NCBI GenBank assembly: GCA_964536865.1
Contig: CAZHYN010000015.1
Location: 10,428-42,427, forward strand
Length of the DNA: 32,000 nucleotides
DNA from: an uncultured Planctomycetia bacterium
Lineage (GTDB): Bacteria; Omnitrophota; Gorgyraeia; Duberdicusellales; 4484-171
Direction of reading: 5' to 3'
The notes below the pieces were generated by a model. It worked only from the letters and a program-made list of their open reading frames with translations, ran no database searches and was not told the origin of the DNA. A program made the position numbers and the translations under genes. Below are positions 5,339 to 32,000 of the stretch, piece by piece (position 1 is the stretch's first letter; every line of letters starts with the position of its first letter).

Positions 5339-6910
5339 GTGTTGTTATCTATGAGGCTGGTCAAAAATCAAAAAATTTCAATGGTTCTTTTTTTGATTTT
5401 AATTTTTAGTTTTTTCTTGAGAATTTATAGAATAGATTATCATAGAGTTTGGTATGATGAAGTCAGATCCATTGCTACCGCAGAGAAAATATCAAGTAAG
5501 GAAGGATTTTTTGCCTATTATAAGCCTCTATATTTTTTAATTTTAAAATTATGGATTAATCTTTTTGGGATAGATGTGACACTTTTAAGGTTGCTCTCGG
5601 TAATATTTGCTATTATTTCAATTATATTTATCTACCGAATTGGTTGTCTCATTATTAATTCAAGATTAGGAATAATTAGTGCTTTTCTTCTGAGCATATC
5701 CTGTTTTCATATCTATCATAGTCAGCAAGTGCGTCATTTTACTTTTTTGGTAATGCTTTGTGTTTTATCTTATTTTTATCTCTTGAAAATTTGGCAAGGT
5801 AGGAATAAATTTTTTTTATACAATACATTTTTGAATATTTTGATAATTTTCACCCATCCTTATGGTTTATCTGTGGTTTTGGCACAAAATCTGTGTATAT
5901 TTTTAGTCTTCAATAGAAAAAAAATAAAGAGGTGGTTTTCCTATCAAAGTATTATATTTTTGAGTTGTATCATCTGGTTTATCTTTTCAGATAGAGATAC
6001 TATGGTAAAGAATACATGGTGGATAAAAGTTCCTCATTTTAACAATATTATAGAGACGTTACATACATTTAGTTACGGAGGTCCAAGGTATGGATTAGAT
6101 GATTTTCAAATTGTCTTTAATTTCCCCATAATTATTAATTTAATCTTTCTAATTTTTGCTGTATTTTTAATCTTCGGATCTATTAAGCTTTTTGGAAAAC
6201 ATAGAAGGGCATTTTATTTTCTCTTAGGCTGGTTGATTATTCCTATCCTTAGTGCTTATATCTTTTCTTTATTATTTTTTCCTGTCTATTTAATAAAACA
6301 TCTTATTATATGCTTACCAGCATTTTATCTTTTAGTTGGAGTAGGTATTTGTGAACTGAGAAGAAAATTATTGGTTTGTTTAGTAGTTGTTTCTATATTT
6401 TTATTGAACATTTATCCGTTAAAGGTTATTTATGTTGAGGACTATAGTATCGATTGGGAAAAAGCTACGGAGTTTCTTAAAAATAATATAAAACCTTTTG
6501 ATGCTATTTTAATTTCTCCAGTTTGTCAGTTGAATAGTTTTCTTTATTATTTTCGCCCACATAAGCGAGGTTTTCTTAAGGACTTAGATACATATGGCAA
6601 AGTTTTAAATGGCAATATTGTAGAGGTATTTAAGGAGAGAGATAATTTGATCTTGGGGCTAAAACAGAACCAGAATAGAAATATAGCAGATTTTAAAAAA
6701 GAGATATTAGAGAAGATCAATATACTAAAGAAGTATTTTGAGGGAGAGAATGTTTGGTTACTAGTTGACAGATGGACGGATCAGGGATCGGACGAAGAGA
6801 ATTTCCTTGTCCATACTTTTTCTAATGTTTACCATAAAGAAGACATGCAGAGATTTTACGGTATAAATGTATATAAGTTTAAAAACTATGAGATTTGCAC
6901 TGATTTTTAA
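5339..6910 (+). CDS. ArnT/PMT_2-like GT-C family membrane glycosyltransferase (GT39/GT83-like)
   Basis: The N-terminus is FFLRIYRIDYHRVWYDEVRS (first-loop DE motif of PMT_2/ArnT-type enzymes). Many hydrophobic segments follow, then a soluble C-terminal domain. The start is GTG 5339 or ATG 5351. Confidence 0.6.
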   Translation: MLLSMRLVKNQKISMVLFLILIFSFFLRIYRIDYHRVWYDEVRSIATAEKISSKEGFFAYYKPLYFLILKLWINLFGIDVTLLRLLSVIFAIISIIFIYRIGCLIINSRLGIISAFLLSISCFHIYHSQQVRHFTFLVMLCVLSYFYLLKIWQGRNKFFLYNTFLNILIIFTHPYGLSVVLAQNLCIFLVFNRKKIKRWFSYQSIIFLSCIIWFIFSDRDTMVKNTWWIKVPHFNNIIETLHTFSYGGPRYGLDDFQIVFNFPIIINLIFLIFAVFLIFGSIKLFGKHRRAFYFLLGWLIIPILSAYIFSLLFFPVYLIKHLIICLPAFYLLVGVGICELRRKLLVCLVVVSIFLLNIYPLKVIYVEDYSIDWEKATEFLKNNIKPFDAILISPVCQLNSFLYYFRPHKRGFLKDLDTYGKVLNGNIVEVFKERDNLILGLKQNQNRNIADFKKEILEKINILKKYFEGENVWLLVDRWTDQGSDEENFLVHTFSNVYHKEDMQRFYGINVYKFKNYEICTDF

Positions 6911-8393
6911 TCCATTTAAATACAAAATTCATGAAGAGAATATAAGAATTGTCCAAAAATATTTTGGTCTTTTTCCACCTTTAAGTATTAGTTGGGTAGC
7001 TTCTATCGCCGAAAAAGCAGGACATAAAGTAATAATTGTAGATGCAAGAACTTTAAAACTTACTATGGCAGAAACGTTAGATATATTAAAAAAATTTAAA
7101 CCCGATATCATGGGTTTTATGATGACAACATATATGTTTCCTGATACTTTAACTTGGATCAGATTTTTGAAGAAGCATTTGAAAATTCCTGTAGTAATAG
7201 GAGGATATAATTTAAGAATTTATCCTAAAGAATCCGTTTCCCATCCAGAGATAGAGTTTGGAGTGGTTGAACATGCTTATTATACAATTCCTGCTCTTTT
7301 TAGAGAGTTAGAAAAGGAAAGACCAAACTTTGATAATGTTCCAGGACTTGTTTACAAAAAAGATGGAAATATTTTTGTTACTCCTCATCCCCAAAAAATA
7401 GATTTTGATAAATTTCCTAATCCTGCAAGACATCTATTACCCAATGAATTATATGCTGAATTTCCTACAGAGAGAAGGAATTTCACTGTGATGGTTACCT
7501 CTTTAGGATGTCCCTTCGGGTGTACATTCTGTGAGGCGGGAAGAACTCCTTATTCGCCTCGTTCCCCAGAAACCGTTGTTAGGGAAATGGAGGAATGTTA
7601 CTATAAGTATAATATTAGAGAAATAGATATTTTTGATTATGAATTTACAGGAATAAGAGAACGAGTGCTAAAAATATGTAAGTTATTACAGGAGAGAAAG
7701 TTGGATATTATTTGGGCCTGCCGTTCTCGAGTAGATACAGTAGATGGTGAACTACTACAGGAAATGAAAAAAGCAGGCTGTAGTAGGATATATTTTGGAT
7801 TGGAGTCGGGTAATCAAGAGATACTTAATAAAGTAAATAAAGGAATAACCCTTAAACAGATACGAGACACGATAGGAATATGTCGAGATTTAGGAATAAA
7901 ATCTTTGGGGTTTTTTCTGATAGGCGCACCTGGAGACACTAGAGAAACAGTAAAAGAGACTTTAAATTTTGCTAAGAGTTTGGATTTAGATTATGTTCAA
8001 TTTTCAAAATGTTTAGCTAAGCCTTTGACTCCTTTGTGGAAACAAATGGTTGAAAACACTGGAAAGGATTATTGGAAAGATTGGATATTGGGCAAAGAGA
8101 TAGATAGATCCTTACCAAGACCATGGACAAGTCTTACAAATAGAGAGATCGATAAATTAGCTAAGTGGGCCTATGTTTCCTATTATTCAAATCCACGCCG
8201 TCTTCTGAAATCTGTTTTAGGAGTTCGCTCCTTCTCAGAATTTAAAAGGAAATTTTTTGCCTTTGTAGATATGGTTTTTTCGCAGGAAAAAGTAGCTAAT
8301 GAAGATGTAAATTTCGAGGCTTTTAATGAAAATTTAAAGAGCACTATTCACATATGTAAAAAGAGACTAAAGGAGGCTTTTTTAAAGGAATAA
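6888..8393 (+). CDS. B12-binding domain radical SAM protein (class B type)
   Basis: The N-terminal B12-binding-like domain reads KAGHKVIIVDARTL...PDIMGFMMTTYMF...IPVVIGGYNL. It is followed by GCPFGCTFC (CxxxCxxC) and YFGLESGNQEILNKVNKG. ATG 6888 (MRFALIFNP) is preferred over the track start 6867, and it overlaps the upstream gene by 23 nt. Confidence 0.85.
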   Translation: MRFALIFNPFKYKIHEENIRIVQKYFGLFPPLSISWVASIAEKAGHKVIIVDARTLKLTMAETLDILKKFKPDIMGFMMTTYMFPDTLTWIRFLKKHLKIPVVIGGYNLRIYPKESVSHPEIEFGVVEHAYYTIPALFRELEKERPNFDNVPGLVYKKDGNIFVTPHPQKIDFDKFPNPARHLLPNELYAEFPTERRNFTVMVTSLGCPFGCTFCEAGRTPYSPRSPETVVREMEECYYKYNIREIDIFDYEFTGIRERVLKICKLLQERKLDIIWACRSRVDTVDGELLQEMKKAGCSRIYFGLESGNQEILNKVNKGITLKQIRDTIGICRDLGIKSLGFFLIGAPGDTRETVKETLNFAKSLDLDYVQFSKCLAKPLTPLWKQMVENTGKDYWKDWILGKEIDRSLPRPWTSLTNREIDKLAKWAYVSYYSNPRRLLKSVLGVRSFSEFKRKFFAFVDMVFSQEKVANEDVNFEAFNENLKSTIHICKKRLKEAFLKE

Positions 8394-8399
8394 TTAACT

Positions 8400-8622
8400 G
8401 GGTTAAGACCAAAAAATATAAATTTAACACAATTTACCCTGGGAAAAGAACATGATATTATGAAAACCTACCTCCTTAAAAAAAGATATAATAATGAAGG
8501 TTGTCTAAGGAAAGGAGGTAGATATGCAAGGTTTAGAAAGAGTAAAAAGGTTTAGGTATTTTTCCACCATAGGTGGATCCTTCGCCTGAGGCGAATCCAC
8601 CTCTGGTGGAACCTCTGGTGGA
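8400..8622 (+). ncRNA. candidate IS110 bridge-RNA / structured leader region (hypothetical)
   Basis: Several structures lie in this stretch: a 10-bp stem 8468-8477/8512-8521, the direct repeat AAGGTTTAG at 8528-8536 and 8547-8555, alternating TCCACC/GGTGGA arms at 8563-8622, and hairpin TTCGCC-TGA-GGCGAA at 8581-8595. IS110-group elements are known to encode a bridge RNA in the 5' non-coding end. Confidence 0.3.
8581..8610. repeat. 30-nt GC-rich double hairpin, copy 1 (TTCGCC-TGA-GGCGAA + TCCACC-TCT-GGTGGA)
   Basis: Two abutting 6-bp stems with 3-nt loops lie 12 nt upstream of the transposase ATG. Confidence 0.7.
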
Positions 8623-14402: not shown

Positions 14403-16719
14403 AGAGATAGGTGTCCTTATTATCTTTATATTTTTCTTCTTTGTTTTATTCAAAAAAATATTATTTGGAAAGGTATTTTTTCGGGGTGACATTTTTTTTA
14501 TGCATCTTCCTGTATTTGAGTATTGGAGAGGGAATTTTTTTTCATTAGATAGTATTTTATGGTCGCCTTCTATCTTTTTTGGATATCCTTTAGCTTCCAA
14601 TCCCCAATTTGGATTATTTTATCCACTAAATTTAATTTTCGTATTTCTTTTTAAAGATACTCTGTATGCTTTAAATCTATTAATAATCTTCAACTACTTC
14701 TTAGGACTTTTATTTACTTATATCTATCTCAGAGAACTACAAATTTCTAAATTTGGCTCTTTGATAGGTAGTATTTGTTTTATTTTTAATAGTTTCATGC
14801 TTGATTATCACGATAGCCTTCATGCTCTTTCAACAATGATATATTTACCATTGTTATTATTTATAATTGAGAAAATATTTAATGATGGAAAATTTTTATA
14901 TATTGCCCTTTCAGCCTTATTAGTCGGTCTTCAGCTTTTAGCTGGACATAGCCAATATTTTTATATCTCTTGGACGATAGTGGTCATCTATATTCTATAT
15001 AAGGTAATTTCTCAGAAAAAATCCCTTAAAAAATCTATAATAATATTCTCTTCTATTTTTATAGTTGGATTTCTAATTGCCTCTATACAGCTTCTTCCTG
15101 CTTATGGTCTTGCGCAATTTTCTTCTCGTAATCTCGCAGTGCCTTCGGCTCTATCTTTGATATCTGAACGTGAAAGTGAGAGTTTAACTCTACAGAAGAT
15201 TTTAGGGTTCTTTTTTTACCATTTTGGAATAAGGAAAGATTCTCCCTTTCAGCCCTGTTTTTTAGGAACTTTTCCTTTCATTCTTGGAACATTAGGAGTC
15301 AACTTTAAAAATAAAAAAGTAAATGGTCTATTTTTTCTGTTTATATTTGGCTTCTCTTTCTTACTGTGTTTAGGTAGATGTAGTTTTTTTTATGACCTCT
15401 TTAGCTATTTACCTTGGTATTCTTATTTTCACGATCCTCTCAAATGGGAGTTCATTTTAGTCTTTTCTATATCTGTACTTTCTGCATTAGGTGTTGAAAA
15501 TCTGAAAAAAGTAAATTTTCTTTGGGTTATTTCAATGATAATTTCAATTTTTATACTATGCTTAATTGGATTTTTATTTTTACTTTATCATTTTGATTTG
15601 TTAAAAATAGCGATAAACGATGTTCTTTTTACTTTCGCTATAACAGTTTTCTTTATTATTATTTTGTTTGTTTTTGAAAAGTATAAAATTATTATAAAAT
15701 CACTTATTTTTATTTTTTTTCTTGCTATCATCTTCATTTATAGTCATAGAAGTATAAGGGAAATTGAAAAGAGTTTGATTGACAAGAACCGAAAGAAATT
15801 AGAGAAATTTTCAAAAGTTTTGGATGATTTAAAGCAAAAAGATAATAGCAGAATTTACTTACATAAGGAGGCTAATTTTTTTTCAATTTTTTCTTACCAT
15901 CTTTATTTATGGTTATATAATTTGAAACCTCGAGTGGACAAAAGATACATATTTTCTTATCTCGATTATCCAATGGGTAATAACCTTCTTCCTTTTAGGA
16001 TTCAACACTGTTCTGGTTATGCATCCCTTATTCCTGCAAGATACCTTGAGTTTACTAAAACCTCTATGGAAATATCTCCAATAAGGATGATGGGATATCC
16101 TGATTTTATTTTTTATCCTAATTATTTATTTTTAAGCAATATATCCATAGCTGTAGTTCCTAAGATCAGAGATAATAAATACTTTCATACAGAGAGTTTA
16201 TTTGAGAAAGTTTACGAAAATAATCAATTTGATATCTATCGAGTAAAAACCCTCTCCGAGAGAGCCTATTTTGCTAAAGATTTTATCGTAGAAAAGGATA
16301 GACACAATATTTTGGATATTTTAAAAAAGGATACTTTTGAGCCTAAGGAGGTTGTTGTCTTGGAGAAAGCTTTAGCTATTATTGAACCTAGGAGGGAGAA
16401 GAAACATGAAAGTTATAAAATTAACATAGAAGAATACAGCAATACAAGTATTGATATAAGTTTAGAGACAAATTCTAGTGGTTTTCTTGTTTTATTAGAT
16501 TCTTTCTACCCGGGATGGGTGGCCTATTTGGATGACAGAAATGTAGAAATTTTAAGAGCGAATTATCTATTTAGAGCAGTGTATATTCCTGAAGAGGGAA
16601 GACACAGAATAGTTTTTAGGTATAAGCCATATTTATTTAGAGTAGGCTGTTGGATAAGTATTTTGACCTTATTTTTTCTTTTGGGTAGTCTGAAGTTTGC
16701 TAAAAAAGAAGTATTTTAG
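14389..16719 (+). CDS. YfhO-family GT-C membrane glycosyltransferase (paralog 1)
   Basis: The 776-aa protein has many TM segments. The C-terminal domain reads SGFLVLLDSFYPGWVAYLDDRNVEILRANYLFRAVYIPEEGRHRIVFRYKPYLFRVG plus a terminal TM helix, typical of PF09586 YfhO. Motifs shared with paralogs include LQLLAGHSQYFY, SIQLLPAYGLAQFSSR and ARYLEFTKT. Confidence 0.75.
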   Translation: MRKYKEIGVLIIFIFFFFVLFKKILFGKVFFRGDIFFMHLPVFEYWRGNFFSLDSILWSPSIFFGYPLASNPQFGLFYPLNLIFVFLFKDTLYALNLLIIFNYFLGLLFTYIYLRELQISKFGSLIGSICFIFNSFMLDYHDSLHALSTMIYLPLLLFIIEKIFNDGKFLYIALSALLVGLQLLAGHSQYFYISWTIVVIYILYKVISQKKSLKKSIIIFSSIFIVGFLIASIQLLPAYGLAQFSSRNLAVPSALSLISERESESLTLQKILGFFFYHFGIRKDSPFQPCFLGTFPFILGTLGVNFKNKKVNGLFFLFIFGFSFLLCLGRCSFFYDLFSYLPWYSYFHDPLKWEFILVFSISVLSALGVENLKKVNFLWVISMIISIFILCLIGFLFLLYHFDLLKIAINDVLFTFAITVFFIIILFVFEKYKIIIKSLIFIFFLAIIFIYSHRSIREIEKSLIDKNRKKLEKFSKVLDDLKQKDNSRIYLHKEANFFSIFSYHLYLWLYNLKPRVDKRYIFSYLDYPMGNNLLPFRIQHCSGYASLIPARYLEFTKTSMEISPIRMMGYPDFIFYPNYLFLSNISIAVVPKIRDNKYFHTESLFEKVYENNQFDIYRVKTLSERAYFAKDFIVEKDRHNILDILKKDTFEPKEVVVLEKALAIIEPRREKKHESYKINIEEYSNTSIDISLETNSSGFLVLLDSFYPGWVAYLDDRNVEILRANYLFRAVYIPEEGRHRIVFRYKPYLFRVGCWISILTLFFLLGSLKFAKKEVF

Positions 16720-16723
16720 AATT

Positions 16724-21114: not shown

Positions 21115-21126
21115 AAAATTGAAGTG

Positions 21127-22120: not shown

Positions 22121-23179
22121 TTGAATGGTATATCTAAAGACGAGGAACATAATTTCAATTTTTTAGCAGAGATGTTAAAGAAGTTAAAATTTATGAGTAA
22201 AATACTAAATCATAGTTTTGGTTCCATAAATTTAATATTGACTAGAAGGTGTAATCTACAATGTCCTCATTGTGAAGTAATTAAAAGGAATAATGGTAAG
22301 GAATTAAGTGTGGATGATTGGAAGGTAATTATTGATAGACTATCAAAGAAATATTTTATTTTTGTTTTTACTGGAGGAGAACCTTTGCTATACAACGGTC
22401 TAGAGGAATTAATAAGCTATGCTTCTCATAAAGGAATAACAGGTCTTCTTACTAATGGAATACTATTGACGGAGGAAAAGATCAAAAGTTTTAAAACTTT
22501 AGATTATATTAATATCTCCTATCCTGTTTTTTATTCAAACCTTGAGACAAAATTTTTAGATACCGTTAAGATTCTTATTCATTATAGTAAAATTTTTAAA
22601 TTTATAGTAAGCTCCACTGTCGTCGTACACGCAAAGAATGTTTTGAAAGTACCTGAAATTGTCAAAAAATTGAATGATTTAAAGGTTAATATAGAGATAT
22701 CTCTATTACACTCCTCTGATGATAAATTATTTTGGTATAGGTGTAATAGATCCGATTTGGCGTTTAAAGAAGCAGAGTTAAATGATTTAGAAAATTTGGA
22801 AAAAGAGTTGATTAAGATGAAAAAGTGTGGTTATAGGATTTTAACTCCCTTAGGCTATATTTCTAGAATGGCTGATTATGTAAGAAAGAAAGTATTTATG
22901 CAATGTTTTGCTGTGGAGAGGTTTTTTACAGTTAATAATGATGGTTTTATTATGCCCTGTCAAGATATTCCTCCTTCAAATATAAATGCTTTAGACTTTA
23001 AGGATTTCAATCAATTGAAGGAGATAAGAAAAAATATACCAGAGAATTGTAACTGCTGGTGGGATTGTGCATATTTCTATTCTCTATTTAGTAGAGGAAC
23101 CATTAAACAGACTGTATCAGAGATAGCGATTTTAGCTCACTCATTTTTTGTACGGAAATTAAAAATAAACATTCTTTAA
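22121..23179 (+). CDS. radical SAM protein, SPASM/twitch-like (group B)
   Basis: Diagnostic segments are TRRCNLQCPHC, FTGGEPLL, CFAVERFFTVNNDGFIMPC (Cx12Gx4C) and CNCWWDC. The start is TTG 22121, with an alternative ATG at 22172. Confidence 0.8.
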   Translation: MNGISKDEEHNFNFLAEMLKKLKFMSKILNHSFGSINLILTRRCNLQCPHCEVIKRNNGKELSVDDWKVIIDRLSKKYFIFVFTGGEPLLYNGLEELISYASHKGITGLLTNGILLTEEKIKSFKTLDYINISYPVFYSNLETKFLDTVKILIHYSKIFKFIVSSTVVVHAKNVLKVPEIVKKLNDLKVNIEISLLHSSDDKLFWYRCNRSDLAFKEAELNDLENLEKELIKMKKCGYRILTPLGYISRMADYVRKKVFMQCFAVERFFTVNNDGFIMPCQDIPPSNINALDFKDFNQLKEIRKNIPENCNCWWDCAYFYSLFSRGTIKQTVSEIAILAHSFFVRKLKINIL

Positions 23180-23228
23180 GAAATTTATTCACTAAGTTTT
23201 TTAATTAAAAATGAACTGACAGAACAGC

Positions 23229-24659
23229 ATGGGAAGAAGAAAGATATTTCTAATTAGACTTGATAACTCTTCTTTAAAGAGAATTTATCATCCCAGACAT
23301 ATGTATCCTCCTTTAACCTTAAAGTATATACAAGCATTATTGAACAAGAAGAAAAAATATGAAGTAAGATTTTTTGACTATTGGGTTAGCAAGCTGTCTC
23401 TGAGTAAGTTCGCTGAAGGAATCTTTAAATTATCCCCGGATATAGTAATAATTTATGTTGATCCATATAACTTTCATTCAGTAGTGAAATTTATATCGCT
23501 GATAACTCAGAAAAAGAAACCCATTATAATCGGTATCGGTCCCGATATTACTTTTAGACCAGAGTTATATATAGAAGATACCCCTCTATTTGATATAATT
23601 ATACCTGGAGAACCAGAAATAGAAATACTCTCAATTATAGAAAAATTAAATGGGAACATAAGCATGTTTAAAGCTTTGAAGGATATTTATAGACGAAGGG
23701 TTAATCTTATAAATATTGTTTTCGATTTAGATAATTTGCCATTTCCGAACTTTACATTAAAAGAATTAAAATCGTACACTTTTATTTATCCGGTAAGAAT
23801 GAATAGAAGATTAATATGTGGTTATGTTATCACTTCCAGAGGTTGCCCCTACAGTTGTACATTTTGTTCGCCTGGAATAAGAAAAAGTTATAGTAAAGTA
23901 TTGCGCTTAAGGAGTACTTCTAATATTGTAGATGAAATCCAGTTTTTAATGAAAAAGGGAGTTAATTTTATATCCTTTGAAGATGATAATTTTGTGGCTG
24001 ATTTTGATCACGTCGTTTCTATATGTGAGGAGATCAAAAGGAGAAGGATAAATATAAAATGGTCTGCTCAGGTTAGAGTAGATGAGGTCAATTATAAACT
24101 GCTTAAATTGATGAGGGATTCTGGATGCAGTCTTCTACAGTTTGGCATAGAATCAGCATCAAAGAGAATTTTACGTATGTTGAATAAAACGACCGAAGCT
24201 GAGAAATGGATAGAAAGAAGTAAAGAGATATTTTATCATGCCAAAAAGTTAGGTATTACCACATGTGCTTTATTTATGATAGGTAATCCTACCGAGACTA
24301 GGCAGGAAGCAGTCGAGACTATAAAATTAGCAAAGTGTTTAAATTCAGACTTAGTAAAAGTTCATTTTTTTATCCTATATCCTGGGTCAACTATTTATGA
24401 AAAGTGTAGGATAGAATATAAAAAGTTACAATTACAAGATGATGTACATCATTATAGTAAACCTATAATTAATTTAAGCAATATGTCCGTAGAGGAGTTG
24501 TTACAAGTAAGAAAAAAGTTTTATAGAAATGTATATTTACAATTAGATTATATTTTAAAGCATATATTTAAATATGGGATTTTTTACATTTTCAATATTA
24601 AAGTATTTTTTATTTTACTGAAGGGTCTTTTAAGAATTTTGCAGGATAGTGAGAAATAA
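23229..24659 (+). CDS. B12-binding domain radical SAM protein (class B type)
   Basis: The B12-binding-like domain reads SPDIVIIYVDPYNF...KPIIIGIGPDITF, followed by SRGCPYSCTFC and QFGIESASKRILRMLNK. The next gene starts at the base immediately after the stop. Confidence 0.85.
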   Translation: MGRRKIFLIRLDNSSLKRIYHPRHMYPPLTLKYIQALLNKKKKYEVRFFDYWVSKLSLSKFAEGIFKLSPDIVIIYVDPYNFHSVVKFISLITQKKKPIIIGIGPDITFRPELYIEDTPLFDIIIPGEPEIEILSIIEKLNGNISMFKALKDIYRRRVNLINIVFDLDNLPFPNFTLKELKSYTFIYPVRMNRRLICGYVITSRGCPYSCTFCSPGIRKSYSKVLRLRSTSNIVDEIQFLMKKGVNFISFEDDNFVADFDHVVSICEEIKRRRINIKWSAQVRVDEVNYKLLKLMRDSGCSLLQFGIESASKRILRMLNKTTEAEKWIERSKEIFYHAKKLGITTCALFMIGNPTETRQEAVETIKLAKCLNSDLVKVHFFILYPGSTIYEKCRIEYKKLQLQDDVHHYSKPIINLSNMSVEELLQVRKKFYRNVYLQLDYILKHIFKYGIFYIFNIKVFFILLKGLLRILQDSEK

Positions 24660-25727
24660 ATGCTTAAGATATTAAGGTTTATTAATAAAATAGGATATAA
24701 AGATAACTTTTATCGATTGCTGTCTACTTCTATAGATAATTTTTTGGTGTACAAAATGTTGAGAAAACCTAAACGAGGTCCTTTATATGTTACTTGGGAC
24801 ATAGTGAAGAATTGCAACGTTAAATGTTTATATTGTGACTACTGGAAATCAAAGAATTTTGGTTTAGCTTTAGAGGATAAACTTCGTATAATTAAAGAGA
24901 TGGGAAGATATGGTATTTGGATGTTAAGTTTCTGTGGTGGTGATCCACTACTAGATAAGGATTTACCACTTCTTATAAAATCTGCCAAAGCAAATGGAAT
25001 GCTTGTTAATGTATCTACCAATGGTTTACTACTTAAGGAAATGCATTCTTCTTTGATTGAGTCTAATTTGGATTCTATAATTATAAGTGTAGAGAGCCAT
25101 AAAGATGAAGTTCACGATGCAATTCGCAATCACCCGGGATTATTAAGAAAAATAAAAGAAGGTATAGAGATCTTAAAGAGAAAGAGAAAGGATAACAAGC
25201 CATATATTAGTATAAGAATGTTAATAAATCGACAAAATTATAAGATGATGCGTGAATACGTAAATTATTGGCGTGATAAAGTTGATAATATATTATTCAA
25301 ACCCTTAACTGAAAATAAGAAGATATTTTATACTATTCCTGAACATATGAAATTGTTGAATGAGGACAAAGAGATATTTGAAAATATTTACTCAAGTCTT
25401 TTTAGAGAAAATCCAGATTTAGATAATATTTATCATCGAGAAATACCTAATTATATATTCGATCATAAAAGTTTACATGATAAATACCGATGTTTTGCTG
25501 GAATATTTTTTGCTGATATCGATATAGAAGGACATTTGTATATCTGTGGAGAGCATAGAGTTATGCTAGGAGATTTAAAAAAACAGAGTTTTTCACAGAT
25601 ATGGAGTTCAGATTTTTCTCAAGACATTCGCAGGAGATTAAAGATATATAAAATAAAATGTTTTTGTTGTGCCGATCTTTTTTTAATAAACATATATCTT
25701 ACTAAAGTTGTAGGAGGCCCCAATTAA
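24660..25727 (+). CDS. radical SAM protein, SPASM/twitch-like (group B)
   Basis: Diagnostic segments are KNCNVKCLYC, FCGGDPLLDKD, SVESHKDEVHDAIRNHPG, CFAGIFFADIDIEGHLYIC (Cx12Gx4C) and CFCC. Confidence 0.8.
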   Translation: MLKILRFINKIGYKDNFYRLLSTSIDNFLVYKMLRKPKRGPLYVTWDIVKNCNVKCLYCDYWKSKNFGLALEDKLRIIKEMGRYGIWMLSFCGGDPLLDKDLPLLIKSAKANGMLVNVSTNGLLLKEMHSSLIESNLDSIIISVESHKDEVHDAIRNHPGLLRKIKEGIEILKRKRKDNKPYISIRMLINRQNYKMMREYVNYWRDKVDNILFKPLTENKKIFYTIPEHMKLLNEDKEIFENIYSSLFRENPDLDNIYHREIPNYIFDHKSLHDKYRCFAGIFFADIDIEGHLYICGEHRVMLGDLKKQSFSQIWSSDFSQDIRRRLKIYKIKCFCCADLFLINIYLTKVVGGPN

Positions 25728-25729
25728 TT

Positions 25730-26932
25730 ATGATTTGCCGTCGCAGGCCAAGGATCTATAAAGGTATCTGGAGAGACGTACTGAATGGAGTATTATTCTC
25801 TAAGTGTCCGCAAGATGAATATGTTAAAACTTTCGAAGAAAAAGTTGCTAAGTATGTGGGTGCTAAATATGCAATAGCCACTTGCACAGGTCGTAATGCC
25901 TTAGAGTTGCTTTTAATGGCTATGGATTTAAAGCAAGGAGATGAGGTAATCTTACCTGCCTATACTCTGAAGGATTTAATATTTCTAATAATTGGAATGG
26001 GATTGAAGCCGGTTTTGGTAGATATAGAACCAGACACCTTTAATATTGATCCTAAACTCATAGAGGAGAAAATTACAGAGAAAACGAGAGTTATTGTAGC
26101 TACCCATCTTTTTGGATTACCCTGTAATATGGATAGAATTTTAGAGATTGCTAAGAAAAATAACCTAAGAGTGATAGAAGATTGTGCGCATGCTTTTGGC
26201 GCCAAATATAAAGGTAAGATGGTAGGAGTCATAGGAGATGGAGGATTTTATAGTTTTCAGTTAATAAAGTTGTTAAATACCTTTGGTGGAGGCATGGTGG
26301 TTACTAATGATAAAAAAATTGCTACTTATGTAAGAGACGCAGTTTCCACATATCCTTCTCTATCTAAATGTAGTTTACTTCTAAAAATTTTATTGAGTTA
26401 TGTAGAATATTTTATAACCGGAAGTTCTTTGTTTATGTTGATTGCTCCCTTCTTCCGTTATAAGTTTACAACTAAGTTGATAAGTAGAATATATTTATCC
26501 TTTGGTAGTCACACTAGAATAGTGCATTTTAAGTTTTCAGATATTCAAGCACTTATTGGTCTAAAACAGCTGTCGTTTTTGAGGCGTAAAGATAGTGAGA
26601 GACTTTATAAGGCTGAGATATTAAAGAACCTATTGAAGGATGTGAAACTACAAAATACTTATGATAAAAATGTAGAAAGAGTAATGTATTACTTTGTGAT
26701 AAAGATAGAAAAGAAAGAAGATTTAGCCAAGATAAGAAAGAGATTATCAATTAAAGGTATAGACGCAGCAATCAAAGAAGAGATAACAGACGATTGTTCA
26801 CTTCTATTGGGTGGTAAATATCCCGTAGCAAATCAGATTTACAATACAGCTATTCAGATCCCCCTATATGAAGAATTAACTCTTAAACAGATAGAAGCTA
26901 TTGCTAATGCAGTTAATAAAATTTGTCGTTAA
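25730..26932 (+). CDS. DegT/DnrJ/EryC1/StrS family PLP-dependent aminotransferase-like protein (paralog 2)
   Basis: The sequence CTGRNALELLLMAMDLKQGDEVILPAYT...KPVLVDIEPDTFNID...VATHLFGLPCNMDRI...VIEDCAHAFGAKYKGKMVGVIGDGGFYSFQLIKLLNTFGGGMVVTND aligns along its length with the 12306 protein. Confidence 0.8.
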   Translation: MICRRRPRIYKGIWRDVLNGVLFSKCPQDEYVKTFEEKVAKYVGAKYAIATCTGRNALELLLMAMDLKQGDEVILPAYTLKDLIFLIIGMGLKPVLVDIEPDTFNIDPKLIEEKITEKTRVIVATHLFGLPCNMDRILEIAKKNNLRVIEDCAHAFGAKYKGKMVGVIGDGGFYSFQLIKLLNTFGGGMVVTNDKKIATYVRDAVSTYPSLSKCSLLLKILLSYVEYFITGSSLFMLIAPFFRYKFTTKLISRIYLSFGSHTRIVHFKFSDIQALIGLKQLSFLRRKDSERLYKAEILKNLLKDVKLQNTYDKNVERVMYYFVIKIEKKEDLAKIRKRLSIKGIDAAIKEEITDDCSLLLGGKYPVANQIYNTAIQIPLYEELTLKQIEAIANAVNKICR

Positions 26933-26954
26933 AGCTACATTTAGGTAGAAACGT

Positions 26955-29234
26955 GTGAGGATTAATTTAAACATAAGAAATAAATGTATAGCATTTTTAT
27001 TTTTTATATTCATTATTACTATTTTTTTCAGAGAGGCTATATTTGTCAAGTATTACTTTGGGAATATAAATCTATTTGGAATTTATTCGTCTTTGTATCC
27101 GGAATATTCCAATTTTATCAAAAAATATTCCTATATCCCTTTGTGGAATCCTCACCGTTTATGTGGATTTCCTGTGCCAGGAGAGCCTCTTGAATGGAGC
27201 TTACTTTCACCTTTTACGATATTAATGTACTTATTATACTATACCTTCCATCTACCCAATCCTATTTTAATAAATATTTATAAAATTTTTAGTTTTATGT
27301 TAATAGGTTGGTTTATTTTTCTCTATATGCGAGAAATCAATCTCTCTAGGTTGGCTGCCTTTATGAGTGGATTTATATTTATTAGTTTGCCCACACTACT
27401 TGACCAATGCGATCCGAATAGTTTAAATTCATATATTTGGTATGGATTAATCCTTTATTTAATTGAAAAGGGAATGAAGAAAAAAAGGATCAATTATATT
27501 TATATTATACTGGCAGCTGTATTCTATGGAATTCAGTTTCTAGGGGCAGATCCTAACTATTGCTATTATTTTTCTCTTTTTCTTTTATTTTATCTTTTTT
27601 TTAGACGACTGCCAAAGTTAGGAAAGGGCACTTTTAAAGTAGAAAAGGTTAGAGAATCTATCTTTATATACTTACTTATTTTTATCGTTGGAGTAGGTAT
27701 CGCTGCTGTACAGCTTATTCCTACCTATGAATTAGCAAAGCACTCTGCGTTAATTCAGTTTAGAAACTATCAAAATATTAATGAATGGGAAAATTTAGAC
27801 AAAGAACAATTACTATCTATAGTGAGATTAAATCCAGAGAAGATGGAGAATTATTGTGGAATTTTAATGATTATTTTTTTGGCATTTTCTTTATTCCATA
27901 AAAATAAATCTTATCTTAAAGTGTATTTTCCTATCATAGCTATTTTTATAACACTAGGTCTTGTTAGAAATTCAAGCCAACTTAAGTTACTCTGTATGTT
28001 TCTGCCATTATTTAGATATCTTGTTCATAACCATTTTATGGTCGTATTTTTTACTTTTTTTACATGTTGTTTTGCTGTTGGATTGGGATTTGAGGAATTC
28101 ATTAGGCAAAGTAAAATAAAGATTTTAATATTGGTTTTCATGTTATCTATATTGCTTTTAATAAATTGGAGACGGTTAAATATTTATTTTTATTTTACTT
28201 ATATTGGTTTGATATTTTTTTCTTTTGTTTTTTATGTATGGAGAAATAGAGAGACAAAATGTAAAAAAGTAATTATTCTGTCTTTCTTTTTATTCTGTCT
28301 TATTAGTAACTATTTGATGTGGCGTCCATTTTATTGGCAGCAATATATGAAGGGGGAATTACTAAGAGCTCTCTATCCTCAGAGATTTGATGAGGAATAT
28401 TCAAATATTTGGCCTTTAGAAAAGTTTTTGAGAGATAATGTTTATAATCGTATTGGAAATTATAGAATAGCCCACTGGGACGATTATGCAAATCGATCTC
28501 TTAAATTTTACTCTTTGGATGGTCGAAGTAATTTTATCCCAAAGCGTTATTTAGAATTTACCAAGGCGAGTTTCGATATTGATTTGACATCAGAAATGGG
28601 ATATCATGATTTTATTTATTATCCTAACTTAATTAAATTATTAAAGTGTAAATATGTAGTGCTAAATAAAAAAGAGGGTAAATGGTGCAACATTATAGGT
28701 GAATATTGGAAGGAAATATTTAGAAATGAGAGATATGCTGTATTCAAATTTGAAAAACCCCTTAAGCATTTTTTGTTTTTAACAGATTTCCTCGTGTTAC
28801 AGAATGATAGAAAGATATTAGAGTTATTAAAAGATAGTAACTTTGATCCTGAGAGAGTAGTTATTATTGAAAATAATCCCAAGATAAGAAATTTTTCTGT
28901 CTTCAGGCAGGAGGATTTGAAGTATGAAATTGAAACTTTAGAATATCTTCCTCAAAGAGTGAAACTTTTTCTACATACTAATATTCCTGGTTTCCTCCTT
29001 TTCTTAGATCCCTACTATCCTGGTTGGAAAGTGTATGTAGATGGTAAAAAGAATAAGATATACCGTGCAGATTTTCTCTTTCGAGCTGTTTATATTTCCA
29101 CTAGAGGAGAACATACTGTGGAATTTGTTTATTCTCCATTTTCTCTCAAAGTGGGAGCAGTTATCTCTTTTATTACACTAGTAGGAAGCATAGCAGGAAT
29201 GAAAATAGCGAAATTATCAAGTATCAGAAAATGA
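26955..29234 (+). CDS. YfhO-family GT-C membrane glycosyltransferase (paralog 3)
   Basis: The start is GTG. The 759-aa polytopic protein carries IQFLGADPNYCYY, AVQLIPTYELAKHSAL and KRYLEFTKA. The C-terminus reads PGFLLFLDPYYPGWKVYVDGKKNKIYRADFLFRAVYISTRGEHTVEFVYSPFSLKVG. The stop overlaps the next start (ATGA 29231-29234). Confidence 0.75.
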   Translation: MRINLNIRNKCIAFLFFIFIITIFFREAIFVKYYFGNINLFGIYSSLYPEYSNFIKKYSYIPLWNPHRLCGFPVPGEPLEWSLLSPFTILMYLLYYTFHLPNPILINIYKIFSFMLIGWFIFLYMREINLSRLAAFMSGFIFISLPTLLDQCDPNSLNSYIWYGLILYLIEKGMKKKRINYIYIILAAVFYGIQFLGADPNYCYYFSLFLLFYLFFRRLPKLGKGTFKVEKVRESIFIYLLIFIVGVGIAAVQLIPTYELAKHSALIQFRNYQNINEWENLDKEQLLSIVRLNPEKMENYCGILMIIFLAFSLFHKNKSYLKVYFPIIAIFITLGLVRNSSQLKLLCMFLPLFRYLVHNHFMVVFFTFFTCCFAVGLGFEEFIRQSKIKILILVFMLSILLLINWRRLNIYFYFTYIGLIFFSFVFYVWRNRETKCKKVIILSFFLFCLISNYLMWRPFYWQQYMKGELLRALYPQRFDEEYSNIWPLEKFLRDNVYNRIGNYRIAHWDDYANRSLKFYSLDGRSNFIPKRYLEFTKASFDIDLTSEMGYHDFIYYPNLIKLLKCKYVVLNKKEGKWCNIIGEYWKEIFRNERYAVFKFEKPLKHFLFLTDFLVLQNDRKILELLKDSNFDPERVVIIENNPKIRNFSVFRQEDLKYEIETLEYLPQRVKLFLHTNIPGFLLFLDPYYPGWKVYVDGKKNKIYRADFLFRAVYISTRGEHTVEFVYSPFSLKVGAVISFITLVGSIAGMKIAKLSSIRK

Positions 29235-30256
29235 TTAGAAAATTTGAATATTTTAATTTAAATTCAATTGTCAAAAAGAGAAAACTAATCTTTTTGAAAC
29301 AAGCATTTTGGGCATTTTTCCTTAAAAAAAGAATACCTCTAATGATAGGATGGAGTTTAACTTCTTCCTGCAACCTTAAATGTCCCTATTGTAGCTACTG
29401 GAGACAGCATCAAAAAAAGGAAATAGAAACTGAAAAAATTTTTTCCATAATCGATGAGATGTATCAAATAAATGTGAGAAGGATACGTTTTACAGGGGGA
29501 GAGCCTTTATTACGTACTGATTTACCTTACATTATCGAATATTGCAAAAAGAGAGGAATTCATGTTTCTATCGGTACTAATGGTACTTTGTTAAAAAGGA
29601 AATTTAATGATATTAAGCTTGTCGATATGATAACTATAAGTTTAGATGGTCCTCAAGAAGTACACGATGCTATAAGAGGTAAGGGAACTTATAAAAAGGT
29701 CATGGAGGGAATAGAGTTGTGTAAGAAGTACAATATAAAATTCCAAATAGATACAGTGATATCGAGTATGAATTTAAAGCATCTACATTTCATTTTGTCA
29801 ATGGCCAGAAATTTAAAGGTTTTTGTTTTCTTCCAACCGGTAACCTTAAATGAATTGGATGGTACCTTACCGAATCCCCTCGTTCCTAGAATAAATGAAC
29901 TTCGATGGGTAATGAAGGATTTGATAAAGGAGAAAATATCCAATAGATATATTGGTAACTCAATGGCCTGTTTAAAATATTACCTAAATTGGCCTCATGG
30001 AGAAATTATTTGTAACATCGACAGAGTTTTTGCCCGCTTGCAGGCCGATGGGCAACTATATACATGTTTTTATAGAAGGAAAAGTCACAGAAATTGTGTA
30101 GAAGATGGCTTTAAGAATGCTTTTAGGGTGTTAGATAGAGGACCATTTAAGTGTTCCCAATGTTGTTGGACAGCAAGGGTAGAATTGAATTTAGCACTTT
30201 CTGGAAACTTAGATGCAATATTAAATTTATTAAAAGTAAATTCTGGACAAATATAA
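29231..30256 (+). CDS. radical SAM protein with SPASM/twitch-like C-terminal Cys motifs (group A, member 3)
   Basis: Diagnostic segments are TSSCNLKCPYC, FTGGEPLLRTD, SLDGPQEVHDAIRGKGTY, and CSQCC followed by VELNLALSGNLDAILNLLK. Confidence 0.85.
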   Translation: MIRKFEYFNLNSIVKKRKLIFLKQAFWAFFLKKRIPLMIGWSLTSSCNLKCPYCSYWRQHQKKEIETEKIFSIIDEMYQINVRRIRFTGGEPLLRTDLPYIIEYCKKRGIHVSIGTNGTLLKRKFNDIKLVDMITISLDGPQEVHDAIRGKGTYKKVMEGIELCKKYNIKFQIDTVISSMNLKHLHFILSMARNLKVFVFFQPVTLNELDGTLPNPLVPRINELRWVMKDLIKEKISNRYIGNSMACLKYYLNWPHGEIICNIDRVFARLQADGQLYTCFYRRKSHRNCVEDGFKNAFRVLDRGPFKCSQCCWTARVELNLALSGNLDAILNLLKVNSGQI

Positions 30257-30259
30257 AAG

Positions 30260-32000
30260 ATGAGAAATTATAAAAGTTGTACCGTACCCTTGTTGTTTTT
30301 AACCTTATTTATTACATTTTTTTCTTTTATTTTTAATTATAAAAGTTTATACCTTGCAAGTTATATTTATACTACACGGTATCCAGTAATTTATTACTTT
30401 CTGAAGAATATTAAGACCTATCAATATTTTTCTTTATGGTGTCCTAATATCCTCTGCGGATATCCTCTGTTAGCAGATCCCTCATATGGATTTTTTAATC
30501 CACTTTTAATGTTTTTTAGCAAGATATTTTCTATACATTTTGTGCTTATTGCTATTTCAACCACTGCCTATCTTTTAGGAACTTTGTTTATTTTTCTATA
30601 TGCACGGAGGATAGGTTTGGATAAATTCTCATCTTTTGTATGTGGTATTGTATATATGTTTAGTGGATACATGTTAAACAATTTTTTTCTATGGACAAAT
30701 GATTTATTATCCATCGTTTTGTTGCCTTTGGTATTTCTTATTATAGAAGGGATTAAAAGAGATAATTTTATTAATAGATGTATTTTGCTAGCATTACTTT
30801 TAGGTATTCAGATGTTAGGAGGCGGATTTCAACTTTTTAGTTATGGATTATTACTGACATTATTTTACTTTTCTATCAAATTTTTCCAAATTTATAAATT
30901 AAATAACGTAAATTTTGCAAAATTTCTAGGAGCATTTTTTGCTATTTTCGTAATGGCTGTGCTTATAGCATCGATACAGATTTTTCCTTCTCTTGAGCTT
31001 TTTCTTATTTCCGGGCGTACAAAAATAGATTTTTATGGAGCTACCTCGAGTAATCCAAAATATTTATTTTCTCTGAAGGATATGATAGATTTTCTTTCTT
31101 TTTCAGGAAATGCTTACATAGGATCAATTCCGTTAACGATTTTTTTTGTAAGTCTACTTATTAAACCTTTCCTATTTAGAGAACGATTCTTCATCTTTAG
31201 CTTTTTTCTATTTTTATTTATCGCTCTTGGCGAAAAGAGCCCTTTCTATAAGATTTTATATTCTCTTTATGTACCTGGTTTTAGATTTTTTAGAGACCCT
31301 AAAAGGATTCTTTATATATGTCTTTTTAGCTATTCAATACTTGTCGGTACTGGCTTACGTAAGTTAATAATTCATCAGTTTAATGAAAAAAGGATTAATT
31401 ACTTTCTATTAATTATTTTTACCTTTTTTAGTTGTATTTATCTATATACAAATTTTTCTCTATTTAACTATATTAAACTGACTTCTTTATTTCTTGCCTT
31501 TTTAGTTATCTATTATTTTGTTAAGAGTAGGAAAATTTCTTATGTTAACTTTATGATAATACTAATTTTTCTCATAATGGGAGATCTTTATATAGCGCGA
31601 CCTAAGAAAGTTCCTTTTTATATTTGTCCAAAATATATAAATATAAATTTATTGGAATGTGTACCTTCATTTATTTCCGATGTACTTAAAAAGGATAAAG
31701 AGACTTTCTTTAGAATAAAATCAGTTCATACTAGCTTCCATAATACTAATTTTATTGGACCTGATATAGATAAAAAGTTAACACTTGAACGAATGGAAGA
31801 AACAATTTGGAATAAGAAGGTACTAAATAAGAATTTTTGCCTACTTTATTCTCTTTTTTCTTCTGGTGGCTATTCGCCACTTATTCTGAGTCGCTATTTG
31901 GAATTCACCAAAACTGATTTAGAAATTAATGGGTTAGAGACATATCCCTACACCACCTTCCTTATCTATCCCAATTACTTAAGATTAACTAATACTAAAT
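30260..32000 (+). CDS. YfhO-family GT-C membrane glycosyltransferase (paralog 4), 3' end outside window
   Basis: This ORF is not in the supplied track because no stop occurs before the window end. It is open from ATG 30260, 3 nt after the preceding stop. My translation gives MRNYKSCTVPLLFLTLF...SLWCPNILCGYPLLADPSYGFFNPL...IQMLGGGFQLFSYG...SIQIFPSLELFLISGR...SRYLEFTKTDLEINGLETYPYTTFLIYPNYLRL, colinear with the other three paralogs. Confidence 0.75.
   Translation, partial: MRNYKSCTVPLLFLTLFITFFSFIFNYKSLYLASYIYTTRYPVIYYFLKNIKTYQYFSLWCPNILCGYPLLADPSYGFFNPLLMFFSKIFSIHFVLIAISTTAYLLGTLFIFLYARRIGLDKFSSFVCGIVYMFSGYMLNNFFLWTNDLLSIVLLPLVFLIIEGIKRDNFINRCILLALLLGIQMLGGGFQLFSYGLLLTLFYFSIKFFQIYKLNNVNFAKFLGAFFAIFVMAVLIASIQIFPSLELFLISGRTKIDFYGATSSNPKYLFSLKDMIDFLSFSGNAYIGSIPLTIFFVSLLIKPFLFRERFFIFSFFLFLFIALGEKSPFYKILYSLYVPGFRFFRDPKRILYICLFSYSILVGTGLRKLIIHQFNEKRINYFLLIIFTFFSCIYLYTNFSLFNYIKLTSLFLAFLVIYYFVKSRKISYVNFMIILIFLIMGDLYIARPKKVPFYICPKYININLLECVPSFISDVLKKDKETFFRIKSVHTSFHNTNFIGPDIDKKLTLERMEETIWNKKVLNKNFCLLYSLFSSGGYSPLILSRYLEFTKTDLEINGLETYPYTTFLIYPNYLRLTNTK

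Follow-up and report, generated by a model that had tools for sequence, protein, structure and literature searches.

A radical SAM-rich locus that recurs across Omnitrophota and probably builds chemically unusual cell-surface sugars

What is made by a locus in which radical S-adenosylmethionine (rSAM) enzymes stand side by side with membrane glycosyltransferases? The question is raised by a stretch of 32,000 nucleotides (the window; contig CAZHYN010000015.1, positions 10,428 to 42,427, assembly GCA_964536865.1), which from position 5339 to its end carries 18 genes, all on the + strand: eight rSAM enzymes, five GT-C glycosyltransferases, two DegT aminotransferases, two PF03706 membrane proteins and one short-chain dehydrogenase/reductase (SDR). 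The rSAM enzymes comprise three of B12 type and five that are SPASM/twitch-like, and the GT-C transferases one of PMT_2 type and four of YfhO type. The array is a real, intact cluster of an Omnitrophota-type anaerobe. It does not stand alone, being a single copy of a locus that recurs throughout the phylum Omnitrophota around a conserved core and that probably builds chemically unusual cell-surface sugars, as far as its genes can tell.

The 18 genes, designated here G1, G2 and G4 to G19, form 17 complete open reading frames (ORFs) of 289-808 codons and one of 580 codons that is still open at the window edge, in DNA of approximately 30% G+C. Their packing is tight, with ATGA overlaps at 12306-12309 and 29231-29234, a TAA-ATG abutment at 24657-24662, a 14-nt overlap at 14389-14402 and, from 9822 to 32000, gaps that never exceed 49 nt; the sole interruption of the array is an IS110-family transposase gene at 8623-9594. 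Both the ORF listing and the junction analysis agree exactly with the initial annotation, which had described coupled genes on one strand broken only by an insertion sequence (IS). Regarding the density of rSAM genes, if approximately 2% of anaerobe genes are assumed to code for such enzymes, eight of 18 consecutive genes lie far above chance (p ~1e-9, as a rough estimate). The same sequence has been assembled independently from other samples, where metagenome contigs as long as 43.8 kb encode proteins identical to those of the window, and one such assembly (L001) ends near the window end. As the 18 genes are intact, the catalytic motifs kept and the sequence independently assembled, the cluster proper is probably functional. 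Identity among the paralogs is low, at 24-38% for the YfhO proteins, 35-40% for G9, G12 and G18, 35% for the DegT pair and 24-26% for the B12-type rSAMs, indicating that these sets are old and not recent duplications.

With G2 as the query, 63 metagenome loci were fetched in addition to five Pfam-annotated contexts, giving, after removal of redundancy, 57 loci with a G2 ortholog, whose ORFs were labelled by phmmer with the window proteins as queries. The recurrent core follows the order GT9 glycosyltransferase, G2-type B12-rSAM, G5-type B12-rSAM, then a SPASM-type rSAM with a PF03706 protein, usually with GT-C genes nearby. GT9 lies directly upstream of the G2 ortholog in 16 of the 40 loci with upstream DNA, and a G5-type gene directly downstream in 17 of 39; within the next four downstream genes, the 24 loci with enough DNA include 16 with a second B12-rSAM, 10 with a PF03706 gene and 8 with a G12-type rSAM. 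GT-C genes, present in 16 of the 22 loci longer than 12 kb, encode PMT_2, YfhO or TMTC-like PMT_2+TPR proteins with an N-terminal FxWDD motif. Since GT9 is regularly found upstream of G2 orthologs, the GT9 gene of the window (heptosyltransferase family; 2964-4172, + strand) belongs to the system despite lying outside 5339-32000, and the conserved core begins with it rather than at position 5339, where the array was initially thought to start. This protein scores 79.7 bits against PF01075 (cut-off 22), its best NCBIfam match being heptosyltransferase II (TIGR02195; 95.1 bits, cut-off 134.6), and it is 40-42% identical to its counterparts in the related loci L085 and L088. A homolog scoring 177 bits is found in L014, which is binned as Methanosarcinales, and this speaks against a role specific to lipopolysaccharide (LPS).

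The most striking conservation belongs to G2 (6867-8393, + strand), the B12-binding rSAM of the core. More than 120 clusters (at the 90% identity level), mostly from Omnitrophota, are 64-80% identical to it, and identity across the orthologs found is 61-80% (64-74% for the named ones), compared to only 29-50% for the neighbouring genes. In a library of 50%-identity representatives, the G2 orthogroup appears as a single match of 725 bits, followed by the next one at 459 bits and 44% identity. The named relatives are nearly all Candidatus Omnitrophica or Omnitrophota, besides one from Elusimicrobia and one 'Spirochaetes' metagenome-assembled genome (MAG), which makes it likely that the window itself comes from Omnitrophota.

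The closest relatives of the window, L088 and L085, show partial synteny and rearrangement with respect to it, the former having the order GT9-G2-G1-G5-G10-rSAM-G6-G7 and the latter GT2-GT9-G2-...-G1-G5-G12-G10. Identity to these two loci decreases from 78-79% for G2 to 49-50% for G1 and 40-42% for GT9 and G5, with further values to relatives of 43% for G12, 39% for G6, 36% for G10 and 29% for G7. Judging by sequence comparison, this gradient marks a conserved core enzyme set inside a fast-evolving surface-glycan locus, and the island appears as an expanded, rearranged copy of a locus recurring across Omnitrophota. The adjacency of YfhO and rSAM genes, whose recurrence the initial annotation had suggested checking, is restricted to L085 and L088 and, loosely, L027, and a conserved two-gene module is not supported beyond the closest relatives.

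Other loci contain further combinations of the same families. L003 has seven rSAMs with GT2s, PMT_2, YdjC and a polysaccharide deacetylase, L011 has ten rSAMs, and L013 (Byssovorax) adds a UbiA prenyltransferase. In L087, an ArnC-like GT2 (80.6 bits), an HpnK-like YdjC protein (160 bits, compared to a cut-off of 232.6) and an HpnJ-like B12-rSAM (165 bits) follow each other. The small GT2s of L086, L087 and L125 are nearest to the polyprenyl-phosphate sugar transferases ArnC, PgfS, AglJ (weaker for L086) and PpgS. Similar gene combinations are also seen in loci binned as DPANN archaea, methanogens and Myxococcota: L008 ('Iainarchaeum' bin, 317-6589) carries a methyltransferase, PMT_2, an ArnC-like GT2, a B12-rSAM and an rSAM; L014 ('Methanosarcinales' bin, 50-10920) carries PMT_2, an rSAM, GT9, a B12-rSAM, a carbamoyltransferase and GT4; and the whole of L006 ('Woesearchaeota' bin) is a similar mix of PMT_2, GT2/GT9, B12-rSAM and rSAM genes. 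Either this combination occurs in both domains, or the contigs are bacterial ones placed in the wrong bins. Correct binning would exclude lipid A as the substrate and leave polyprenyl or dolichyl phosphate as the simplest common carrier.

Profile hidden Markov model (HMM) searches confirm the rSAM assignment of all eight enzymes, which score 51.7-103.7 bits against PF04055 (cut-off 29.5) and carry one CX3CX2C motif each. The motif had been placed at the N-terminus of every protein; it is indeed present in all of them, but in the three B12-type enzymes it lies near residues 202-222, after the B12 domain. As for this domain, initially assigned to three proteins, the PF02310 cut-off (32.1 bits) is passed by G2 (48.6 bits) and G5 (76.2 bits), while G14 (28.3 bits) falls just below it and aligns over its full length to families of B12-rSAMs. 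The three are classified as class B rSAMs, having a B12-binding domain, and are predicted to bind cobalamin.

The best NCBIfam match of G2 is HpnJ (TIGR03471) at 169.4 bits, and its nearest solved structure by sequence is the aminoglycoside diol-dehydratase AprD4 (86.6 bits). G2 has no hydrophobic tail, and none of 44 proteins of its type contains a membrane segment; in one case (P0146), the ortholog is fused to a GT2. The second core B12-binding rSAM, G5 (10813-12309, + strand), has a C-terminal hydrophobic segment at residues 451-469 that is also present in 12 of 20 homologs, and it matches best the ladderane-cluster family 'lipid biosynthesis B12-binding/radical SAM' (112 bits), followed by HpnJ (110.4 bits). 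G14 (23229-24659, + strand; PF04055 70 bits) is HpnJ/BchE-like, aligning along its full length to the NCBIfam models of HpnJ (140.6 bits), BchE (133 bits) and BzaD, and is 40% identical to a gene of L086. An identification of any of them as HpnJ itself was rejected, as the scores of G2, G14 and G5 compare with an equivalog cut-off of 577.6 bits and neither squalene-hopene cyclase nor hpn genes are present in the window or the annotated related loci. Four giant proteins of 1467-2633 residues (P0355, P0369, P0385 and P0406) were also found to contain two to four G2-like B12-rSAM stretches each. In complete Omnitrophota genomes, radical SAM domains are reported to cluster with sugar-metabolism domains in giant proteins (2026 preprint, 10.64898/2026.06.07.730766), and these four may be examples of the multi-enzyme giant proteins reported for this phylum.

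The five remaining rSAMs were initially described as SPASM/twitch-like, and the cysteine patterns behind this description are observed, although a Pfam SPASM match (PF13186, 26.8 bits; cut-off 21.5) is given only by G15 (24660-25727, + strand; PF04055 78 bits). G9 (16697-17668, + strand; 81.7 bits), G12 (21124-22119, + strand; 96.7 bits), G13 (22121-23179, + strand; 58.9 bits) and G18 (29231-30256, + strand; 103.7 bits) share a C-x17-C element and a C-terminal CxxC(x)C patch that no SPASM HMM matches. The patch comprises six cysteine columns that are 70-88% conserved in the family alignment, and in G13, whose C-terminus is rich in cysteine, the residues are 262, 280, 310, 312 and 316. G9 is 35% identical to G12 and G18, and the core-type G12 has orthologs in L085 and L086 with 39-43% identity. 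At the family level, the SPASM-type enzymes match the NCBIfam models of NirJ/AhbD, PTO1314, MoaA, mycofactocin and HpnH at 54-120 bits, and the nearest solved relatives of G9, G12 and G18 by sequence are SkfB, CteB and PqqE. The AlphaFold2 model of G18 has a predicted local distance difference test score (pLDDT) of 92.9, and its best full-length fold match in the PDB is the sugar decarboxylase BlsE, with template modelling (TM) scores of 0.68/0.71, followed by peptide maturases, viperin-like enzymes, MoaA and DesII. The G18 family is mostly from Omnitrophota and Elusimicrobiota; a contig scan with the generic rSAM pattern GGEPLLRxD returned 80 loci, mostly of the unrelated NirJ/AhbD type, and approximately 16 full-length family members.

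The five GT-C transferases are predicted membrane proteins, beginning with the PMT_2/ArnT-like G1 (5339-6910, + strand; PF13231 35 bits, 15 hydrophobic segments), whose orthologs in L085 and L088 are 49-50% identical. Among the YfhO-type proteins, G8 (14389-16719, + strand; 17 hydrophobic segments) and its paralog G17 (26955-29234, + strand; also a paralog of G10) reach 96.7 and 51.3 bits, respectively, against PF09586, which has a gathering score of 28.5. The Pfam scan gives no direct match for G10 (17674-20100, + strand) or G19 (30260-32000, + strand; cut by the window end), which are YfhO-like by paralogy: in BLAST, G10 aligns to G8 along 777 residues with 30% identity (E 6e-99), and G19 is 28% identical to G8 (E 3e-31) and to G10 (E 4e-40). 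PF09586 is carried by the cluster to which G10 belongs and by 40 of its 44 other homologs (41 of the 45 matches listed). The AlphaFold2 model of G10 (pLDDT 81.6, predicted TM score 0.85) shows a GT-C fold, as GT-C enzymes fill the first 16 places in its list of PDB matches (AftD, STT3, PglB and AglB, with PMT further down), with probabilities of 0.98-1.00, E-values from 1e-3 and TM scores of approximately 0.4. Sequence searches of the PDB with G8 and G11 gave no match. A fusion with a Wzx-type flippase domain is seen in some of the YfhO homologs.

The sugar enzymes and the flippase-like proteins complete the array, and here also Pfam bears out the families initially assigned (DegT, SDR, flippase-like, GT-C and YfhO). 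G4 (9822-10808, + strand) is an SDR-type NAD-dependent sugar epimerase/dehydratase (PF01370 95 bits), its best NCBIfam match being ADP-glyceromanno-heptose 6-epimerase at 66.6 bits, far under the cut-off. G6 (12306-13529, + strand; PF01041 223 bits in two stretches) and G16 (25730-26932, + strand; 260 bits) are DegT sugar aminotransferases dependent on pyridoxal phosphate (PLP), matching PseC, LegC, ArnB and WecE at 116-178 bits, all below cut-off. In both, the PLP-binding lysine aligns with the catalytic lysine of solved enzymes, and an insert of approximately 43 partly hydrophobic residues, spanning residues 222-266 or so of G16, separates the two halves of the fold when compared to solved DegT structures. 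The split Pfam match is also found in the DegT genes of L086 and L087, and the insert may act as a membrane-association element. G7 (13533-14402, + strand) and the core-type G11 (20137-21114, + strand) pass PF03706 (66.5 and 95.6 bits; cut-off 33.4), while the generic flippase-like model TIGR00374 (cut-off 43.2 bits) is passed by G7 (46.6 bits) and not by G11 (38.0 bits), making it the only NCBIfam model passed by the window proteins. The G11 type is paired with a G12-type rSAM in L004, L005, L007, L086, L097, L110 and L122.

What the sequences show are the gene families and their tight arrangement, a core that is conserved as a unit, the GT-C fold and the membrane tail found in G5-type enzymes. 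From these, a scheme can be drawn in which the carrier, the stage of the rSAM reactions, the reaction types and the acceptor are our proposals. The cluster would be a functional envelope-glycoconjugate cluster, in which radical enzymes alter a sugar borne on a lipid, the product is flipped across the membrane and GT-C enzymes hand it on to acceptors in the envelope; this account is considered reasonably probable. At the cytoplasmic face, the SDR G4 and the two DegT enzymes (G6 and G16) would activate the sugars and aminate them, and GT9 here, or ArnC-like GT2s in the relatives, would load them onto the carrier, most likely polyprenyl phosphate. Radical remodelling would occur at or near the membrane by the soluble G2, the tail-anchored G5, and G14 together with G9, G12, G13, G15 and G18, the likeliest reactions being ring contraction to a cyclitol, deoxygenation or dehydration, decarboxylation and C-methylation. 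With HpnJ, AprD4 and BlsE as nearest neighbours, the indication is that G2 and G18, at the least, act on sugars without methylating them. Then, G7 and G11 would carry the lipid-linked product across the inner membrane, and G1, G8, G10, G17 and G19, each with its own specificity, would transfer it to periplasmic acceptors, which could be an LPS-like glycolipid, a glycan or a protein. We infer a heavily C-modified glycan as the product, as had been suggested. The order of events, with glycosyl transfer ahead of the radical step, is suggested by the G5 tails, the kinship with HpnJ, the gene order of L087 and the fusion of a G2 ortholog to a GT2.

Regarding the priming step, a GT2 gene does lie upstream of GT9 in the window (2320-2954, + strand), as a pseudogene with a frameshift and a loss of approximately 68 N-terminal residues. 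The intact counterpart, also upstream of GT9 in L085, aligns to it in two frames, with residues 69-96 at 2320-2403 and residues 110-274 at 2448-2942, and the surviving ORF of 106 residues matches PF13632. As this gene is dead, the priming transferase would be encoded elsewhere in the genome, or GT9 itself would prime.

Several known systems resemble this scheme. One is the HpnI-HpnK-HpnJ series of hopanoid biosynthesis, in which lipid-linked N-acetylglucosamine is deacetylated and then thought to be ring-contracted by the radical enzyme (PMC13459092). Among the named families, HpnJ gives G2 and G14 their highest scores, L087 repeats the order of GT2 (HpnI), YdjC (HpnK) and B12-rSAM (HpnJ), counterparts of HpnA (SDR), HpnH (SPASM-like rSAM) and HpnL (PF03706) are present, and a lipid-borne sugar would likewise be deacetylated or aminated before a radical rearrangement. 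However, the HpnJ scores and the lack of squalene-hopene cyclase and other hpn genes separate the two systems, GT-C and GT9 enzymes are foreign to hopanoid biosynthesis, and the window has neither an intact GT2 nor YdjC. Together with HpnJ, the calditol synthase Cds has been proposed as a precedent for the radical ring contraction of a lipid-linked sugar (PMC13459092). This archaeal rSAM converts a hexose on a lipid into a cyclopentyl head group; its likeness to the island is conceptual, and it acts on glycerol dialkyl glycerol tetraether (GDGT) lipids in Sulfolobales.

The initial annotation had compared the non-radical genes with the Arn and Gtr systems, and this logic remains the best fit, as the relatives carry GT2s, deacetylases and GT-C genes beside the same rSAM families; the part that did not hold for the window is the priming GT2, of which no intact copy is present. 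As in the addition of 4-amino-4-deoxy-L-arabinose to lipid A by the Arn pathway, there are DegT and SDR enzymes, a flippase step and a PMT_2/ArnT-like GT-C, with ArnC-like GT2s and deacetylases in the relatives, and a lipid-phosphate-linked amino sugar is proposed for the island as well. Unlike Arn, the island has no ArnB, ArnC or ArnT equivalog (the ArnB model gives 136.6 and 157.7 bits, compared to a cut-off of 631), the window lacks the ArnA formyltransferase and ArnD, PF03706 proteins take the place of ArnE/F, and the eight rSAMs are without an Arn counterpart. With the three-component GtrA/GtrB/GtrC and CsbB/GtcA/YfhO systems, the latter of which glycosylate teichoic acid in Firmicutes, it shares a YfhO-family GT-C as extracytoplasmic transferase, a lipid-linked monosaccharide donor and a dedicated flippase. 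Only their GT-C component is found in the window, though, which is devoid of a GtrB/CsbB-type GT2 (the GT2 pseudogene being of another subtype) and of GtrA/GtcA (PF04138), replaced by PF03706, while four divergent YfhO paralogs are interleaved with rSAMs. Omnitrophota are diderms of the Planctomycetota-Verrucomicrobiota-Chlamydiota (PVC) group, in which teichoic acid is not expected. As for the rSAM enzymes of antibiotic biosynthesis, AprD4 is the nearest solved homolog of G2 and BlsE the best fold match of G18, and AprD4, DesII and GenK had been named in the initial annotation as earlier cases of radical chemistry on sugars; nevertheless, AprD4, BlsE, DesII and GenK work singly on soluble antibiotic intermediates and show 15-24% identity in fold alignments, whereas the island has eight rSAMs in an envelope-glycan context with GT-C and flippase-like proteins.

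These enzymes introduce the main alternative, which departs from the lipid-carrier scheme in nothing but the timing of the rSAM reactions. Like DesII, AprD4, BlsE and GenK, the rSAMs would work on soluble, nucleotide-activated sugars before lipid attachment, leaving the loading to GT9 or GT2 and the delivery to GT-C enzymes. The proximity of G2 to AprD4 (86.6 bits) and of G18 to BlsE agree with it, as do the presence of DesII and viperin-like nucleotide dehydratases in the fold list of G18, the missing membrane segment in 44 of 44 G2 orthologs and the usual action of DegT and SDR enzymes on nucleoside diphosphate sugars. On the other hand, the tail anchor in 12 of 20 G5 homologs, the lipid-linked glucosamine thought to be the substrate of HpnJ, to which G2 and G14 come closest among named families, and the association with GT2 seen in the order GT2, YdjC, B12-rSAM of L087 and in the single G2-GT2 fusion all suggest that glycosyl transfer comes before the radical step, and the soluble route is regarded as unlikely, though its odds are not negligible. 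Another target would be the membrane lipid itself, in place of a glycan, remodelled by the rSAMs through isoprenoid or acyl methylation, cyclisation, cross-linking or a hopanoid-type side chain, with GT-C, PF03706 and DegT proteins decorating the head group. The top match of G5 to the ladderane-cluster lipid family (112 bits), the occurrence of HpnJ, HpnR, HpnH and Tes among the NCBIfam matches and of GDGT-MAS among the fold matches of G18, and six hopanoid-family counterparts in these loci (HpnA-, HpnH-, HpnI-, HpnJ-, HpnK- and HpnL-like) are compatible with such a role; but all scores are far below the family cut-offs, the window and the five annotated loci contain no squalene-hopene cyclase, squalene synthase, HpnG, or fatty-acid or isoprenoid-chain genes, and the main partners are glycosyltransferases (GT9, GT2, GT4 and GT-C) and sugar aminotransferases, making lipid remodelling improbable.

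Still less probable, to a degree that it hardly competes, is a function of the SPASM-type rSAMs as maturases of a secreted protein or a ribosomally synthesized and post-translationally modified peptide (RiPP), subsequently glycosylated by GT-C enzymes. The sequence kinship of G9, G12 and G18 to SkfB, CteB and PqqE, the high place of anSME and SuiB in the fold list, and the resemblance of the TMTC-like PMT_2+TPR GT-C proteins of the relatives to protein O-mannosyltransferases are on its side, yet Pfam scans of the window detected no RiPP recognition element, peptidase or transporter, and the best full-length fold match of G18 is a sugar enzyme. A RiPP cluster was rejected for a further reason, as the gap limit of 49 nt between 9822 and 32000 leaves no space for a precursor gene. 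Very low odds are also given to a decaying, non-functional copy of the island, under pseudogenisation after IS activity. Two pseudogenes (GT2 and DUF362), a transposase relic at 1725-1967 on the - strand, an IS110 element inside the array and a gene order rearranged with respect to L085 and L088 would fit decay; nevertheless, 17 complete ORFs and one open to the edge persist in DNA of approximately 30% G+C, where stops arise easily, the CX3CX2C motif is kept in eight of eight rSAMs and the lysine in the DegT enzymes, and the identical sequence has been independently assembled.

Several observations weigh against the lipid-carrier scheme. The substrates of AprD4 and BlsE are soluble, so that tailoring ahead of lipid attachment would fit just as well. 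The window contains no intact priming GT2, phosphoglycosyl transferase, Wzx, Wzy or WaaL; GT9 enzymes are known to use lipid A-Kdo or proteins as acceptors and are not known to use polyprenyl phosphate, and among PF03706 proteins a flippase activity is established only for MprF. No window protein reaches a curated NCBIfam equivalog cut-off, with membership in HpnJ, HpnH, HpnK, ArnB and PseC each rejected on this ground; the same result speaks against close homology to a characterised pathway, in line with the initial annotation, which knew of none that combines this logic with such a density of rSAM enzymes. Promoter and terminator scans of the window gave results no different from shuffled sequence and are uninformative, and the taxon labels of the loci derive from MAG bins. 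This copy in particular may be partly impaired, given its GT2 and DUF362 pseudogenes and the IS110 element between G2 and G5.

A broader version of the lipid-carrier scheme can be put forward tentatively, its truth being possible and still rather doubtful: a conserved, possibly cross-domain pathway, in which class B and SPASM-type rSAMs turn amino sugars on lipid carriers into carbocyclic, deoxygenated or C-branched donors for GT-C enzymes of the envelope, with G2 as an indispensable and novel radical step in envelope biogenesis. Each component family is already known, as is the general logic of lipid-linked sugars, flippases and GT-C transferases. What appears undescribed is the combination of GT9, two class B rSAMs and a SPASM-type rSAM paired with PF03706, the extreme conservation of G2 and the rSAM saturation of envelope-glycan loci throughout a phylum, as no description of rSAM/GT-C/GT9 envelope loci was found in the literature. 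Radical SAM chemistry on cell-surface glycans is nearly unexplored, and in a 2026 review of lipid-modifying rSAM enzymes, the words polyprenyl, undecaprenyl and lipopolysaccharide are absent. The comparison thus leads from a single island to a defined five-gene core, kept throughout an uncultured phylum and made up of GT9, two B12-rSAMs, a SPASM-type rSAM and PF03706. If the scheme is true, new sugar structures, such as cyclitols and C-branched or deoxy sugars, new reactions of class B rSAMs and a new type of GT-C donor would follow. Many Omnitrophota are thought to be host-attached nanobacteria, and the locus could help to explain their surface biology.

Between GT9 and the array, a pseudogene with DUF362 and 4Fe-4S ferredoxin domains (4206-5307, + strand) is recognised by DUF362 and Fer4 Pfam fragments. 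Compared to its intact homolog in L113, it has three in-frame stops, and its N-terminus lies in another frame; intact DUF362 genes adjoin G2 orthologs in L113 and L096. Two of the stops are TGA (4879-4881 and 5095-5097), and selenocysteine or another recoding was considered and rejected, as the intact homolog has the ordinary residues V, D and G at the stop positions, there is an additional frameshift, and TGA serves as a normal stop elsewhere.

The transposase gene between G2 and the rest of the array (8623-9594, + strand) matches PF01548 and PF02371 (70 and 88 bits) and is approximately 40% identical to annotated IS110 transposases. Its leader (8400-8625) contains a perfect 12-nt tandem repeat, with two copies of ACCTCTGGTGGA at 8599-8622, and a 17-nt hairpin at 8562-8611, and its RNA folds with -61.2 kcal/mol, more stably than shuffled sequence (z = -3.1). 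It might represent a guide ('bridge') RNA of IS110 type; a scan of the window with Rfam at gathering thresholds returned no match. The ORF of 80 residues at 1725-1967 (- strand), cited above as a transposase relic, resembles by eye the C-terminus of a DDE transposase or integrase and has no Pfam match. At the beginning of the window, the match of a 198-residue ORF (24-620) to class II fructose-bisphosphate aldolase is confined to the C-terminal part (positions 167-242 in a profile of 277); the ORF is preceded by a stop at the window start and may be a truncated gene, or its N-terminal part may lie upstream. Among the related loci, the downstream end of L122 (19331-21469), L116, L117 and L123 is occupied by 'unk713', a conserved protein of approximately 700 to more than 3000 residues with no Pfam match, which follows a TMTC-like GT-C pair where this pair is present (L122 and L123).

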